Shown here: one piece after another, positions 1 to 19,925 of the stretch
Position numbering within the stretch: the first letter of the stretch is position 1
How the letters are laid out: each line of letters begins with the position of its first letter
Source: a virus
Taxonomy: Duplodnaviria > Heunggongvirae > Uroviricota > Caudoviricetes
IMG/VR virus record: IMGVR_UViG_2541047437_000015
DNA length: 21,659 nt
Strand: one strand, 5' to 3'
Position numbers and translations under genes: made by a program
The notes under the pieces: model-generated
The model's input: the letters and a program-made list of their open reading frames with translations, nothing else
What the model was told of the DNA's origin: nothing
Database searches by the model: none

Positions 1-750
1 TAATCGTGACGTTGTTGAGCGTCCCGGAGTTCGCATTCACGTTACCGCTGATATCGGCATTTTTCGCCGTCAGCCGCCCGTCCGGTGTCAGGGAAAATGC
101 CGGAGGATTACCGCCGCTGGTAATGGTGGGAGCCGTCAGATATTTCAGGAACACTTCATTCATGAATATCTGATCGCCCTGACCAACAAACATCGGCTTT
201 GTGTTGCCATTCGCAGGATTAATCATCGCAATCCTGTCTGCTGCCAGCAGCACCTGACTCTGCATGCCGTCGGGGGTGTTCTCAATACCGGCACCGATAC
301 CCGCAATATAAAGGCGTCCGTCCTGCATCTGCTGCAGCTTCACTGCCCACATGCTGTTCAGGTTATTATTTGTATCAACCTGAACCTTCTGTATCTGCTG
401 GATCGCTGCACTCTGGTCTTCCAGTTTCTTATTGACGGTCTGTGTTATTTCATTGCTGACATCCGTTATGGACGTCCTGATTTCAGTCAGGTCAGGCGCA
501 AGCTGACCGTTATCAATCTGAGTCCACAACTCCTGAGCCAGATGGGTTTTCCCTATCTCTCCTTTGAAAAAATCCAGATAGCCTGATGCATCATCACTCG
601 GCTGACCGACAGCCTCCACAAATGCCGATTTGCCAACGGTGTTCACACTGCGGATATAAAAGTAATAATCATGGCCCGGTTTGATATTGATACTGGCAGC
701 TATCCAGTACAGCGCCGAGCCAAGATAGCGGGTATAGCGCGGCGATTTTT
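1..750 (-). pseudogene. Fragment of a lambdoid host-specificity / tail-tip protein J-like gene, runs off the window start; upstream part replaced by the Mu-like prophage end (boundary approximate, 730-775)
   Basis: Not in the ORF track because its stop lies outside the window. My own minus-strand translation reads ...[53 protein letters not shown]...[31 protein letters not shown]...[41 protein letters not shown]..., which I recognise as the C-terminal third of lambda-family J proteins. No plausible start or N-terminal ~800 aa is present. Confidence 0.55.
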
Positions 751-860
751 TTGATACCGATTTGCATTTCATTTGATACCGCTGAAAAACGCCGATACGC
801 AACTTATTTGATACTAAATCGGCGCTTTTCTTTTGAGTTTTAGAATGAGTTTTTAAGCGC
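751..860. repeat. Putative prophage right-end region (transposase-binding terminal repeats); three direct copies of TTTGATAC(C/T) at 751, 773 and 808 and a GAAAAACGC motif at 784
   Basis: Lies between the mom stop (861) and the J-like fragment. The stretch from 774, TGATACCGCTGAAAAACGCC, loosely resembles the Mu R-end terminus TGAAGCGGCGCACGAAAAACGCG as I remember it; the exact terminus is not determined. Confidence 0.4.
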
Positions 861-1598
861 TCATTCACTCTCTTTCAAACCAGTTTTAACTGTTTGTGGT
901 TTTGGGTAAGGCTGGACTTTGAATAGCTTTGTGTTGAGGCGTTTTCTGGCCCTCTTGTTCAGAAACCGGATGTAACGAAACTGTCGGAACTTATGAACAC
1001 TGGCTCTGTCAATATTAGCCCTCAGATGTTCACCTCGTTGTCCGCCTCGTTTAATGGCATTCCTGCAAATCTCGTGATACCACTCGCCATCAAGTTCATA
1101 GAATATTGATTCATGGCTGCCTACATAATCAAAATTGCTTGCCTGATACACGACACCAAGACAGCCACAACGCTCATCTGCAAACGACTGAACCCACTGT
1201 ACCTGCGGATAAAGCTGCCTGATTAGCTTGAGCGCGTAACTGATTGCCCTTGATTCGGAGTTTCTCGGCATACAGTCATGCAGCCATAGCCGGTTAAGCT
1301 CCATATATTCTCGGTTCTGCGTACCCGTTACGACGCGTGCACCACTGTTTGGGTTAAGGGCGTAACCCCATTGCATTACGCCAACAAGTTCCCGTTCTGA
1401 AAATATGCCCAGATGAAGGTAGGAGTTATTTACGAAACGGTGGCTGTAATGTTTATTGACGATGACCAGTCTGGCCAGCCAGCAACTTATTGTCTCAACC
1501 CGCAACTCACGGGAGCCATAACCAACGATATTGTCGTTATAGCGAATAAGTTCAGGCGTGCTGATGATTCGGGATGTGACTTGCTTTCTGTTCCCCAC
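861..1598 (-). CDS. mom: DNA modification protein Mom-like (adenine modification, anti-restriction)
   Basis: 245-aa ORF with GTG start at 1598 and AAGGAAA 9 nt upstream. It sits immediately downstream of and overlapping com and is the last gene before the prophage end, exactly as mom does in Mu. Function is assigned by synteny, not by a motif I can point to. Confidence 0.75.
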
Positions 1599-1752
1599 GA
1601 CAGGATTTCCTTGTGTATGTGGGGTGCTCTGTGGCGCTCGGAGATGTGATTTGATTGAGGGTTTTACAGCGCGGACATTTTACTTCCAGATAACTGAAAC
1701 TGGCCCGTGCCAGTAGCTTATTGCAGTGTCGGCACCGTATGTTTCGATACAT
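1552..1752 (-). CDS. com: Com-like zinc-finger translational activator of mom
   Basis: 66-aa ORF from ATG 1752 (GGAGG 11 nt upstream). [30 protein letters not shown] is a C-x2-C...C-x2-C finger closely resembling Mu Com. The track's 81-aa version starts at an upstream TTG and is probably over-extended. The 3' end overlaps the mom start by 46 nt. Confidence 0.8.
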
Positions 1753-1945
1753 GACCGCATAACCTCCTGCTTTGTTGTTGATGCCTTTCTCATGCAATCG
1801 ATCGACAAAAACGATCGATTCGATTTGTTTAATTGATACAACAAATAGATTGAAAAGTCATCAACAATGATTCAGGGAGGTGATTATTTACTTAAAGAAA
1901 ACGAAGAGTTAGGTGGTGAAAACGATCATAAAATGATCATTTTAT
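1753..1945 (-). promoter_or_regulatory. com-mom upstream regulatory region with four GATC (Dam) sites: 1800, 1813, and the palindrome GATCATAAAATGATC at 1924-1938
   Basis: GATC positions read directly from the sequence. In Mu the mom promoter is controlled by Dam methylation of clustered GATC sites (OxyR binding) and activated by C. No promoter hexamers are assigned with confidence. Confidence 0.5.
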
Positions 1946-2946: not shown

Positions 2947-2987
2947 CCCGCCAGCCATATCATGACCGGCGGGATTTTTTTATTCTG
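2947..2987 (+). terminator. Plus-strand-oriented intrinsic-terminator-like hairpin (CCCGCC...GGCGGG followed by ATTTTTTTATT), directly abutting the esterase stop codon
   Basis: 6-bp GC stem with a ~15-nt loop and a T7 run on the plus strand. On the minus strand, where the neighbouring genes lie, the A-run precedes the hairpin, so it would not act as a canonical terminator for them. Confidence 0.4.
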
Positions 2988-5019
2988 TTACCGCTTTTTT
3001 CACTTCCACCACAATGCTGTCAATCAGCACCGGGTAAGTTGCATTTTTTGTGATATCCGTTACGCGGAGTTTGTCCACCGGGAAAGTTCCTACTGGTGAC
3101 TGCGTCAGGGTAAACGCGGCACCATCCTGACCATCAATAACCGGAATAACCTGAAGGCTGTTATTTCCTGCAAAACGGAAGGCCAGCGTATGCCATTCAT
3201 TATCAAATGCACCAAAGGTTCCCAGTTTCTGGTTATTTGTTGCCACTTTTGCATTGTGGTACATCACATTCAGGTCTTTTGCGTCTGTCTGGATGTAGAA
3301 CGATGCCAGCAGATTATTCCCTGCATCCCCTGTCAGGGTGACACCCTGCGGCAGAGAGGAAACCGGCCAGTAAAGCCCCATGACATACTGGTTTGCCACC
3401 AGGTCGCCAGGTACTTTAAAACGACAACTGATTAAACCACCATTTTTCAGCAGTTCAGCACCAGTACCGGCATCATGATCCAGATACCAAGATGATTTAC
3501 CTGTTTCCTTGGTCAGTTTCATTGCCTTACCACCTGTGCCTCCTGCATCACTGATAATTTCAGCTTTACCGCCAGCCGGCTCCCAGCCCTGGGCTTTCAG
3601 ATTTCCTTCTGACTCACTGACACGATAAGACAGCAGTGTTGTGGTTACTGCTTCAGTTTCTGAAGGTGACGGCACTGGTGCTTCAGTTTCAGAAGATGGA
3701 ACATCGGCTTTTACTGTGGTTCGCCCCGCATGAGTCAGAACTGCCGTGGCCAGACGGTCGGAAATAATCCCACGACGTGCCCATGAACTGAAATGGCTGG
3801 CCCGGTCCGCAGATGTCCAGGTGGCGGCACTGTTACGCCACGTTGAGCCGTAATAACCAATGGATTCAATATCCGGGTCTTCTGCCGGATTGTTGGTGGG
3901 TACATTCGCGTCATTTTCATCTGTCATTAATGGAACGAAATGAATGTTTTTATCTGTTTTGTTTTTGTAGCCGCCATAGATTGCCTGGTATGCCGGTTCA
4001 TTTTTCTGTTTCCAGAAATACGTGGTATCGCCACAAATCCACGGAACGCCAGCAGCACTGCCACCGGTACACTGTTCCGCCTGTTCAGCCAGGTCTGCGC
4101 GGAATTTTTCCACCATCGCCAGAAACAGCGCGGAATGCTCCGTCGGCTTCGCATCAATATCAAACTCGCCCTGCATCCACACCACAGCAAGCAGGCGGTT
4201 TTTCGGGTTCTTCGCCAGTGCCGCTTTTGTCCGGCTGATTAAGTCCTTATACAGCGGCTTATCCACACCCCAGCGGGCTGAGTCCTCTGAAGCACCCGTG
4301 CTGTCACTGTACGTGCCGTCAGCACCCGCCGTGAATGCAGAACCACCACGGCAGCAGGGAACCAGCAGAATCCCCGCATCTGCCGGAATAAACGGCAGCA
4401 GTTTTTTGGCAATGTGAAGCCCCTGACCCACGGTGCCATATTGCCCTTTAGCCACATCCGCTTTCGGGTGATTTTTTCCACTCATATCCTGCACATCATG
4501 CAGACAGTGGTCGGCCAGAATGATGTCGTTATACTGACAGGCTTTACCTCCCGGCGTGACTGTACTGCGACGGGCTAACTGCATAATACGCGGTTCGGGG
4601 CGGTCATATGTCTCCGGCAGTGGCAGACCTTCACCGTAAGCCATACCGTTTGACTGACCAGCAAGAACCACCACGTAATACCAGGAAGGGGAGCTGGAAG
4701 CAGTTTCATTTCCTGACGGACGGGTATGTGTTTCAGCATTATCCCAGTCTGACGGTTCAGCAGTACCGGCAACATCAGCACTTAACGGAATGACCGCACC
4801 AATACCCGCTCCGGTAATTTCCACACTCGGATCACCGGATACTGGCCTTACCCACAGGCAATCCCGTGTATTAAAACTGATGAGACAGTCAGCAAATGTC
4901 ATTCCTCCTTTTGTTTCGGCCGGAGGAAAGGGAGCCTCAAGAAATGCCGCTGTACCACCGGAAACTTTAACAGTAAAGTTTCCGGGCATTGATGATAGTT
5001 GAACCCATTTGGACGTCAT
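2980..5019 (-). CDS. SGNH/SASA-family esterase, putatively a sialate O-acetylesterase-like (NanS-p-like) protein, with a C-terminal lectin/carbohydrate-binding-like domain
   Basis: 679-aa ORF. VVVLAGQSNGMAYGE contains the GQSN nucleophile motif typical of SASA/SGNH esterases. A Ser/Thr/Glu/Pro linker (SETEAPVPSPSETEA) precedes a ~200-aa beta-rich C-terminal domain. This architecture resembles the prophage-borne NanS-p esterases of E. coli. Confidence 0.6.
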   Translation of the reverse strand: MTSKWVQLSSMPGNFTVKVSGGTAAFLEAPFPPAETKGGMTFADCLISFNTRDCLWVRPVSGDPSVEITGAGIGAVIPLSADVAGTAEPSDWDNAETHTRPSGNETASSSPSWYYVVVLAGQSNGMAYGEGLPLPETYDRPEPRIMQLARRSTVTPGGKACQYNDIILADHCLHDVQDMSGKNHPKADVAKGQYGTVGQGLHIAKKLLPFIPADAGILLVPCCRGGSAFTAGADGTYSDSTGASEDSARWGVDKPLYKDLISRTKAALAKNPKNRLLAVVWMQGEFDIDAKPTEHSALFLAMVEKFRADLAEQAEQCTGGSAAGVPWICGDTTYFWKQKNEPAYQAIYGGYKNKTDKNIHFVPLMTDENDANVPTNNPAEDPDIESIGYYGSTWRNSAATWTSADRASHFSSWARRGIISDRLATAVLTHAGRTTVKADVPSSETEAPVPSPSETEAVTTTLLSYRVSESEGNLKAQGWEPAGGKAEIISDAGGTGGKAMKLTKETGKSSWYLDHDAGTGAELLKNGGLISCRFKVPGDLVANQYVMGLYWPVSSLPQGVTLTGDAGNNLLASFYIQTDAKDLNVMYHNAKVATNNQKLGTFGAFDNEWHTLAFRFAGNNSLQVIPVIDGQDGAAFTLTQSPVGTFPVDKLRVTDITKNATYPVLIDSIVVEVKKAVTE

Positions 5020-5118: not shown

Positions 5119-5679
5119 TTATTTTTCCGAAACGCTCGCAGGATAATAACGATAAAGGGTTGAAAGGCCGATATCAAAAATAAGTGCCACCTGTCTTCGA
5201 CTGACACCCCCGGCCAGTAAACGCCCGACCTGCTCGTATTGTTCCTGCGTGAGACGACGGGGTCTGCCGCCGGTTCGTCCCCTTTCACGGGCAGCTGCAA
5301 GACCAGCCCGTGTCCGTTCGACAATTAATTCACGCTCCATTTCTGCCAGCGCACCCATTATGTGAAAAAAGAAGCGCCCCATGGGGGTTGACGTATCAAT
5401 GTTGTCAGTAAGACTACGAAAATTTATCCCCTGTTGCTGTAATTCATCTGTCAGCGCAACAAGGTGGCGCATACTGCGCCCCAGCCTGTCCAGTTTCCAG
5501 ACCATCAGTGTGTCACCGGGTTTTAGTTTCTTCAGTGCCCGCTTCAGTCCCGGCCGCTGTGTCGTTTTACCACTCATTTTATCTTCAAAAATCTGCTCAC
5601 ATCCTGCACATTCCAGCGCATTTCTTTGTAAACCTGTGTTCTGGTCATTTGTTGATACGCGTATATAGCCAATCAGCAT
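5119..5679 (-). CDS. gin: Gin/Pin/Cin/Hin-family serine DNA invertase
   Basis: 186-aa ORF. MLIGYIRVSTNDQN...VWKLDRLGRSM...FRSLTDNIDTSTPMGRFFFHIMGALAEMERELIVERT is near-identical in pattern to Mu Gin, with the catalytic Ser in the RVST motif. RBS AAGGAAGG 8 nt upstream. Lies adjacent to a gix-like site. Confidence 0.9.
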   Translation of the reverse strand: MLIGYIRVSTNDQNTGLQRNALECAGCEQIFEDKMSGKTTQRPGLKRALKKLKPGDTLMVWKLDRLGRSMRHLVALTDELQQQGINFRSLTDNIDTSTPMGRFFFHIMGALAEMERELIVERTRAGLAAARERGRTGGRPRRLTQEQYEQVGRLLAGGVSRRQVALIFDIGLSTLYRYYPASVSEK

Positions 5680-18977: not shown

Positions 18978-19925
18978 TTACAGATAATCCGCGACAACCA
19001 GCTCCAGCTTACCCTTCATCTCGTTAGAGACGGTTGCGTTTCCGTCTGCGAACAGTTCACGCTCCAGCAGCTGCACCGCCTGTTTTTCCAGCGAGGTGGG
19101 GACAACAATATGGGTGGGTTTAATGCCGAGTTTGCGGCCACCGTCAGCGGTAAATTCGCGCATGGCTGACCAGCCGTGCCACAGTGCATCCAGCGTCAGC
19201 GGTGACTGCATCATGTAGGCCATCTGCCAGAAGCCGTAGCCCACATTGCGACGGGCGGATGCACCAAACACAAATTCGTTATCGGTGAATGCGCGACCTT
19301 CATCGACTTTGGTCTGGGCAACCAGTTCAGCCTTACGGCGATCCTGATAAATCAGCGGTTTTACCGCGCGGGAGCAGTCAAGCAGATACCAGGCCGGACC
19401 GCTGTAATCAGCCTGTGCGCCGACAGAGCCGGTTTTTGCCACAAACATATTGCTGACCATCTGCGCATCCCCGGAGCCATCCACTTTGGGGTAAACCGGA
19501 TGTTCGGTATCAAAGAAGTTCTGACCGTCATAGCAGGCCGCACTGATCCCGTCACGCAGGGCAGCAAAGACCAGCTCATCCGGTTGTACCGCCGCAGCGC
19601 GCCCCATCTCCTGGAACAACGGGGAATAAATACCGAGGTTGTCGTCTTCGAAGTCATCGCGGCTAATGGCGACAGTGCCTTCAAAAGTTTTGTTCACGAT
19701 GGCATAGCCATAGGCTTTCATCTTCTCGATGACGCGGGAGCCGATCCACTCACGGAACTGCGGGAACTGCCCCAGCCAGCCGTAGGTGTTGGATTTCGAG
19801 GTGGAGGGCACGGTCATCGCAATTTTTTTGTACTGCGACGGGGCCATGGACATCCCGGCCTGAAAATCAGAACGGTAGCCCGTCATCAGGGCGGTGATCA
19901 TCGCCGGTGTAATCGGGGTAGGCAT
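18978..19925 (-). CDS. T: Major head (capsid) subunit, Mu T-like
   Basis: 315-aa ORF following the protease/scaffold gene; size and position match Mu T (~305 aa). Confidence 0.75.
   Translation of the reverse strand: MPTPITPAMITALMTGYRSDFQAGMSMAPSQYKKIAMTVPSTSKSNTYGWLGQFPQFREWIGSRVIEKMKAYGYAIVNKTFEGTVAISRDDFEDDNLGIYSPLFQEMGRAAAVQPDELVFAALRDGISAACYDGQNFFDTEHPVYPKVDGSGDAQMVSNMFVAKTGSVGAQADYSGPAWYLLDCSRAVKPLIYQDRRKAELVAQTKVDEGRAFTDNEFVFGASARRNVGYGFWQMAYMMQSPLTLDALWHGWSAMREFTADGGRKLGIKPTHIVVPTSLEKQAVQLLERELFADGNATVSNEMKGKLELVVADYL

Follow-up and report, generated by a model that had tools for sequence, protein, structure and literature searches.

Genes and features at the prophage junction

The window analysed here is a stretch of 21,659 nucleotides of tailed-phage DNA (IMG/VR record IMGVR_UViG_2541047437_000015); the features located in it and at the opposite end of the inserted element are collected in Table 1. 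Its first 732 nucleotides, which hold an open frame on the minus strand, showed 94–98% identity to the J genes of Stx phages and of lambdoid phages, with all matches stopping at 730–732. After position 732 an uninterrupted J gene (LC567829.1) reads CTGTGGTTTC, whereas the window reads TATAGCGCGG, and because the two diverge there the junction was placed at 732|733. An earlier note on this DNA had named a junction outside 740–860 as a refuting condition; the junction maps 7 nt outside that range, which technically goes against the note, but the true terminus is no more than 84 bp away from any of the three repeats described below. The suggestion of the same note that the right end of a Mu-like prophage lies near 751–830 proved correct, the window from 733 onward being the right end of an Sp18-like prophage. 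The segment 733–1700 was 99.8–100% identical to prophages of O157, O26, O111 and O103 genomes, and the gene order of the element is the same as in one such prophage (L003). Judged by these sequence matches, the window from 733 onward is the same element as the Sp18-type Mu-like prophage of STEC. The lambdoid J gene is thus disrupted by a Mu-like insertion, a prophage within a prophage, and its interruption should disable the tail tip of the lambdoid, Stx-phage-like prophage. A search for this exact J-gene insertion in complete E. coli genomes found it in none.

Table 1. Positions of features in the window and at the left end of the Sp18-type prophage
Feature	Position	Strand	Remarks
Host-specificity (J) gene of a lambdoid prophage, 3' part in window orientation	1–732	-	Cut by the Mu-like insertion
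Predicted copy of target duplication	729–732		CGGG in window orientation, CCCG in phage orientation
Right terminus	733–737	-	Phage top strand ...GCTATA-3'; A opposite T733 would be the 3' end that is transferred
R1-equivalent, CGCGGCGATTTTTTTGATACCG	738–759 (core 750–758; nt 6–27)	+	Putative site; register of Mu R1
R2-equivalent, ATTTGCATTTCATTTGATACCG	760–781 (core 772–780; nt 28–49)	+	Putative site; abuts R1, 22 bp apart
R3-equivalent, ATACGCAACTTATTTGATACTA	795–816 (core 807–815; nt 63–84)	+	Putative site; direct orientation
Extended repeat, first copy, GCGATTTTTTTGATAC	742
Extended repeat, second copy, GCATTTCATTTGATAC	764
Extended repeat, third copy, GCAACTTATTTGATAC	799
GAAAAACGC	784–792		9-mer in common with the Mu right end
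Hairpin enclosing R3	784–830 (arms 784–796 and 818–830)	-	Inverted repeat, 13 pairs, 92% complementary
Second hairpin, GAATGAG...CTCATTC	843–866		8 pairs; overlaps mom stop codon
mom (DNA modification)	861–1598	-	As in Mu, the gene closest to the right end; Pfam Mom PF25680 (258.9 bits)
com (translational regulator of mom)	1552–1752	-	RefSeq annotation mapped from L003 39649–39849
Palindrome AATCGATCG...CGATCGATT	1796–1820		Perfect, 9 bp; GATC at 1800–1803 and 1813–1816
154-aa ORF	1867–2331	+
DUF6645 gene (679 aa)	2980–5019	-
Gin-like invertase gene	5119–5679
Isolated repeat copy, TTTGATACC	19506–19514	-	Within head-morphogenesis gene; prophage coordinate about 19975
Left-end sites L1, L2 and L3	nt 6–27, 101–122 and 153–174 from left terminus		Putative sites; all direct

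The element is mobile. In other E. coli genomes it borders unrelated genes (fbpC, yjeJ, garP, hyfE, nadB and terB), and when 5426 complete E. coli genomes were searched with a 300-bp probe starting at 733, 232 of them matched, with as many as 4 copies in one genome, giving 284 places with unrelated flanks. Among the matches listed, each alignment begins at the first base of the probe, that is, at window position 733, and the homology to the prophage starts exactly there despite the unrelated flanks (hyfE, nadB, garP, yjeJ, an Stx phage and others). In LC727895.1 the same boundary is annotated ('inserted Bacteriophage Mu-like phage'), together with a 4-bp duplication that is given without comment. 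Sp18 of E. coli O157:H7 Sakai is intact and packaged, and was not circularised (PMC2669165); Sp18-like phages occupy variable, strain-specific loci (PMC7430833) and often sit inside other prophages (PMC10132054). The Sp18-type phage occurs in about 4% of the complete E. coli genomes, most of them STEC. It inactivates genes, among them genes carried by Stx prophages and by other prophages, and its exact ends, site consensus and duplication length make precise annotation and insertion typing possible.

Repeats at the right end

A triple repeat TTTGATAC(C/T) with spacings of 22 and 35 bp had been noted at the right end from the letters alone, and is present as described. The coordinates given for it (751–758, 773–780 and 808–815) hold for the 8-mer TTGATAC(C/T); those of the full 9-mer TTTGATACY start one base earlier (Table 1). 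All three copies are direct, on the plus strand, and a search of the right-end region for the inverted form GTATCAAA returned none. They belong to a longer family of 16–17 nt, GCNNTTNNTTTGATAC, whose members recur with the same two spacings. Dinucleotide shuffles of the window contained a mean of 0.19 copies of TTTGATACY, and the four copies of the real window (the fourth being the isolated minus-strand copy in Table 1) were reached in 0 of 100 shuffles. This isolated copy is accompanied by no flanking site features and is probably a chance occurrence.

The stretch from 774 had also been read as a loose parallel of the Mu right-end terminus. This could not be upheld, since the terminus is not at this place and the exact 9-mer GAAAAACGC, which sits between R2 and R3, is the sole string in common with the Mu right end and is not significant. 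Local alignment against window positions 733–862 gave scores that were equalled in 11 of 500 shuffles for Mu R 1–50 and in 32 of 500 for Mu R 1–90. As 2–6% of shuffles score as high and the match is confined to the exact 9-mer, GAAAAACGC was rejected as a Mu-type site or relic of Mu.

Both ends of the element

Five complete insertions were compared (in an Stx1 phage, hyfE, nadB, garP and yjeJ). The element is 38,738 bp long, or 39,337 bp in one copy, and all five share the ends 5'-TGTAACC...GCGCTATA-3' (in longer form 5'-TGTAACCAGGTGAATCATTTGATACC...GGTATCAAAAAAATCGCCGCGCTATA-3'), so that the termini TGTAACC...GCTATA are constant at unrelated positions. The left end TGTAACCAGGTGAATCATTTGATACC and the right end TATAGCGCGGCGATTTTTTTGATACC carry the motif at the same place: read inward from either terminus, TTTGATACC occupies nt 18–26. 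The earlier note had proposed a search for inverted copies of the motif at the other prophage end, and they are there, at the same distance from the terminus. Two further left-end copies lie at nt 113–121 and 165–173. The whole 38,738-bp prophage contains eight copies of TTTGATACY: six face inward and lie no more than 175 bp from an end, and the remaining two are internal. With the limits of the 22-bp sites set by analogy with Mu, the putative sites follow the approximate consensus nnnnGCRnnnnATTTGATACYR, the inner edge being the best-conserved half of each.

The target duplication was 4 bp in all eight insertions for which both ends were available (L002, L003, L004, L009/L010, L011/L012, L029/L153, L053/L208 and L055/L210), the duplicated sequences being AGAG, CAGG, CACG, TCCC, CGCG and ATCA and, in a sister clade described below, AGGA and GATA. 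In the two insertions that were checked against intact genes of K-12 (nadB and hyfE), the two flanks overlap by 4 nt. A duplication of 5 bp was considered and rejected: shifting the boundary by one base at either end is incompatible with the flanks of L002 and L003 and with intact K-12 hyfE and nadB. For the insertion in the window, the copy of the duplication at 729–732 is a prediction because the other junction lies outside the window.

The Sp18-type element begins with 5'-TG at the left and finishes with TA-3' at the right. Among relatives, either end may have TG or TA, and the sister clade has TA at both (left ends L023, L031, L043, L045 and L050–L059; right ends L080, L095, L098, L126 and L208–L212). 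Mu needs CA-3' for efficient chemistry. For transposable phages, scars are stated as 5 bp (Mu) and 6 bp (B3) only, and transposable prophages of Leptospira have TA rather than TG/CA termini (PMC8705779). The latter resemble the Sp18-type element in their TA termini, showing that MuA-like transposases can use TA ends; they differ in their 6-bp duplications, in having TA at both ends and in their unrelated hosts and sequences (PMC8705779).

Comparison with phage Mu

The ends of Mu (NC_000929) were scanned with the MuA consensus YGTTTCAYTNNAARYRCGAAAR, which is said to come from the 1984 work of Craigie et al. and was confirmed on these ends. The scan placed L1 at nt 6–27, L3 at 151–172, R1 at 6–27, R2 at 28–49 and R3, inverted, at 56–77; in Mu L2 the string CGCGAAAG ends at nt 132, the inner edge, compared with 122 for the Sp18-type counterpart. 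The architecture of the two phages is nearly superimposable. Both have three sites per end, contiguous 22-bp R1 and R2 at nt 6–27 and 28–49, L1 at 6–27 and L2 and L3 about 100–175 nt inside, and in both the inner edge carries the most conserved half of each site. Likewise, mom and com are the final genes before the right end, and near the left end both phages encode a transposase of the MuA family together with an AAA ATPase.

The sequences themselves are unrelated, the Sp18-type recognition sequence having nothing in common with the MuA consensus YGTTTCAYTNNAARYRCGAAAR. The proposed analogy with Mu R1–R3 stands for the register of R1 and R2; the third site departs from it in being direct, at nt 63–84, in the Sp18-type element, whereas Mu R3 is inverted. 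Further differences are the target duplication (4 bp versus 5 bp in Mu), the right terminus (TA-3' versus CA-3') and the transposase, whose identity to MuA is only 22% and in which Pfam detects neither DDE_2 nor HTH_Tnp_Mu_2. The same positional layout combined with a sequence unrelated to the Mu consensus bears out the idea, already put forward in the earlier note, that this Mu-like lineage is distinct and has end sequences of its own.

The candidate transposase

The left end of the prophage lies outside the window. About 1.2 kb from it is the gene for a protein of 696 aa (L003 3152–5242), followed directly by a gene annotated as an AAA ATPase. BLAST gave a full-length alignment of the 696-aa protein with MuA (22% identity, E 5e-11), and its Pfam scores for Mu-transpos_C (63.8 bits) and HTH_Tnp_Mu_1 (28.7 bits) exceeded the cut-offs. 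The I-gamma domain of MuA (HTH_Tnp_Mu_2) and DDE_2 were sought with Pfam in the protein and went undetected, and a sequence search of the PDB returned retroviral integrase cores only, at E about 1e-4, MuA being absent from the hits, a result that says nothing about the DNA-binding domains.

A comparison of L003 with L025, L036, L043, L055 and L059 showed the transposase to be a mosaic. Between Sp18-type transposases and those of the sister clade with the motif TTCAAGATAA, identity was 51–52% over residues 81–170, 66–72% over residues 171–260 and 89–94% over residues 261–420, the catalytic core. Since residues 81–260 diverge together with the motif and the core is conserved, the divergence would be concentrated in the region where recognition of the ends is expected, which is consistent with the repeats being transposase sites. 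Residues 1–80 vary separately: among phages with the TTTGATACY code they can be 46–58% identical, though the proteins are at least 97% (97–100%) identical elsewhere. In position these residues correspond to the enhancer/operator-binding domain of MuA. In Mu and D108 the enhancer-binding domain tracks immunity, and the variable residues 1–80 of the mosaic Sp18-type transposase resemble this situation.

Relatives and a sister clade with another motif

Left ends were gathered by way of the transposase from 66 viral-contig loci. Wherever the transposase was at least 77% identical and enough upstream DNA was available, three inward copies of TTTGATAC were present at the left end, the first always at nt 18–26, with strongly diverged DNA between the sites; the tabulation of this left-end conservation is partly circular because the motif was used in selecting the sequences. 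At the right end, the R1 core is kept at nt 18–26 in all relatives. R2 is kept as well, its place being taken by TTCAAGATAA in the sister clade. The R3 core is found at nt 74–76 in diverged relatives (L082, L089 and L098), and the sister clade has its other motif at nt 75.

In the sister clade, whose transposases are 71–76% identical, TTTGATAC is missing and three copies of TTCAAGATAA occupy the left end from nt 18, the end itself being sharp (TATGACTAGG...). The motif thus changes with the transposase lineage. From these left ends, and on the premise that the motif marks transposase sites, copies of TTCAAGATAA at nt 18 and 40 of the right ends were predicted beforehand, and a scan with the pattern TTCAAGATA-N13-TTCAAGATA (22-bp spacing) recovered right ends of the form TAAAGCGCGGAAAATTATTCAAGATAGATATGGAAATCATTCAAGATAAG...ATTCAAGATAA, in which the motif recurs at nt 18, 40 and 75. 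For two of the recovered right ends the left end is on the same contig (L053 and L055).

Among named phages, the nearest in transposase sequence are Pseudomonas phage VW-6B (47% identity), with TTYTGGACW at right-end nt 18, 40 and 73, and Mannheimia phage vB_MhM_3927AP2 (45%), with TTTTGCATAG at nt 18 of both ends and, at the right end, again 22 bp inward. Both resemble the Sp18-type element in their terminal T(G/A)TAGCG... and in right-end repeats starting at nt 18 and 40; they differ in their core motifs (TTYTGGACW and TTTTGCATAG), and their termini are TG.

The bare pattern TTTGATAC-N14-TTTGATAC is unspecific. About 15 true Mu-like right ends were present among the viral-contig matches listed, most of which were unrelated palindromic iteron arrays. 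Many unrelated viral contigs carry such arrays of palindromic GTATCAnnTTGATAC units with a period of 22 bp (L084, L085, L088, L090, L091, L102, L107, L108, L109, L117, L121, L124, L127, L128, L134, L143 and others); they are not Mu-type ends and may be iterons or operators.

Function of the repeats

Window positions 733–816 are very probably the attR of an Sp18-type Mu-like prophage, with the three repeats as putative cores of transposase sites. The assignment to the transposase is made because of position, symmetry, conservation and homology. That the repeats are end-binding sites of the transposase, as the earlier note had suggested, is supported by the mirrored ends, the Mu register, the motif change in the sister clade and the diverging DNA-binding region of the protein. 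By homology with Mu we infer the binding of the protein, the limits of the 22-bp sites and which of the sites would be essential.

Monomers of the MuA-family transposase would bind R1–R3 and L1–L3 through an N-terminal helix-turn-helix region. By inference from Mu, transposase bound at R1–R3 and at the three left sites would then pair the ends into a transpososome. Nicking is expected at the terminal A opposite T733, with the 3' A of the bottom strand at the left end likewise exposed, if the chemistry is that of Mu. Both 3' ends would be joined to target phosphates 4 bp apart, a stagger that the duplications show, and repair or replication would then yield the 4-bp repeat. The target in the window was the lambdoid J gene, which is disrupted.

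Covariation of motif and transposase alone does not single out the transposase, because repressor and Ner-like proteins also differ between the clades. The repeats might instead bind another phage protein, such as the repressor, Com, a Ner-like protein (HTH_35) or an activator of the Mor/C type, which would control mom or shut down the ends; the location just downstream of mom would suit such sites, and since other regulators likewise vary by phage lineage, the covariation is compatible with them. However, the repeats are 3' of the mom stop codon and away from the mom promoter, they are symmetric at both termini, inward-pointing, fixed at nt 18 and in the register of Mu R1/R2, and the repressor–ner intergenic region, where an operator would be expected, has no good copy, the best internal matches being inside coding genes. 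A regulator is therefore an improbable ligand.

Slightly less probable still is a role of the repeats as signals for packaging (pac) or for another step of virion maturation. Mu-type phages do have a pac near one end, and that of Mu is at the left end, between L1 and L2, but a signal at a single end suffices for headful packaging, and the motif is mirrored at both; the conserved L1–L2 spacer, which is Mu-like in L043 and L045, is the better pac candidate. In these two relatives the spacer at left-end nt 28–75, GAAAAATCCGGGAGGAAAGTGGATTAAACGGGATTTGATGGGAT, closely resembles Mu left-end nt 24–70 (about), a region that presumably holds Mu pac. Sp18-type phages have a different conserved L1–L2 spacer, and this distribution of spacers suggests that packaging modules are exchanged independently of the att code.

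An RNA element, such as a 3' untranslated region or terminator structure of mom in which repetition of the DNA is incidental, is a still more remote prospect. Minus-strand RNA of 733–870 folds better than shuffles (z = -4.7) and R3 falls in the loop of a 13-bp hairpin, yet R1 and R2 lie outside any strong predicted helix, the identical motif at the left end is in a different transcript context, and the hairpin shifts or changes sequence in relatives whereas the positions of the motif are fixed. Chance repetition of a functionless AT-rich 9-mer, with which the chance-like appearance of the two internal prophage copies and of the window copy at 19506 and the occurrence of bare TTTGATAC-N14-TTTGATAC in unrelated viral contigs would agree, is effectively refuted by the three copies within 66 bp where 0.19 are expected per window, by the mirrored copies at the other end, by conservation in relatives and by coordinate replacement in the sister clade.

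With the repeats taken as putative transposase sites, both the element and the kind of site are already known, and no new category is involved. Whether the Sp18-type clade constitutes a mechanistically distinct MuA-type branch, with a 4-bp stagger, CA-3'/TA-3' ends and at least two att codes, is an even question; the codes concerned are TTTGATACY and TTCAAGATAA, which separate transposases that still share about 75% of their residues overall and about 93% in the catalytic core. If so, the clade would be a natural system in which to work out how the end-binding domains of MuA-like proteins recognise DNA, and could supply orthogonal transposase/end pairs. The combination of Mu architecture with another code, a 4-bp stagger and TA termini offers a handle on MuA-type end recognition and active-site spacing. 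The papers on Sp18 (PMC2669165, PMC7430833, PMC10132054) cover the prophage, its mobility and its packaging, and end-binding sites are absent from them. In the literature searched, in which subscription journals were thinly covered so that an earlier description is possible, the end sites of Sp18 and 4-bp Mu-like duplications were undescribed; on this basis the site code and the way it covaries with the transposase, the stagger of 4 bp and the mixture of TG and TA termini appear to be new to the literature.

The mom–com region and the R3 hairpin

In identical prophages RefSeq names the last gene 'protein mom', and in L003 it describes com as a 'Com family DNA-binding transcriptional regulator'. 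Read from the mom-sense (minus) strand, RNA of the hairpin enclosing R3 forms a 13-pair stem followed by UUUUUC (-21.6 kcal/mol, z = -4.8) and so resembles an intrinsic terminator. Its loop of 21 nt is atypically long, and a simple terminator scan gave no call. The stem is kept in L153 despite base changes; in L082 a stem of different sequence (TGAGCAAC/GTTGCTCA), followed by T6, occupies the same place, and the sister clade has a canonical hairpin directly inside R3. RNAalifold applied to three variants mis-registered the different-sequence stem of L082 and yielded no useful covariation, so the reading of the hairpin draws on the individual folds. On balance we favour the R3 hairpin as the mom terminator, placed to stop transcription at the att sites. 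The 9-mer GAAAAACGC forms part of its distal arm; rather than a Mu-type site, it is an arm of the predicted hairpin around R3, which probably ends mom transcription before the terminus.

The second hairpin, at the mom stop codon, was terminator-like on the plus strand in the scan. Between the Gin-like invertase gene and mom lies the DUF6645 gene, and between the DUF6645 gene and com is the 154-aa ORF on the opposite strand; both differ from Mu in having no counterpart there at this place, and they may be cargo or moron genes. Just past the right edge of the window, between prophage head genes, RefSeq annotates an antisense 'tRNA-OTHER' (L003 19601–19681). Upstream of com and mom is the perfect palindrome listed in Table 1. 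The Mu mom promoter has a Dam/OxyR-controlled GATC cluster upstream, which the two GATC sequences of this palindrome recall.
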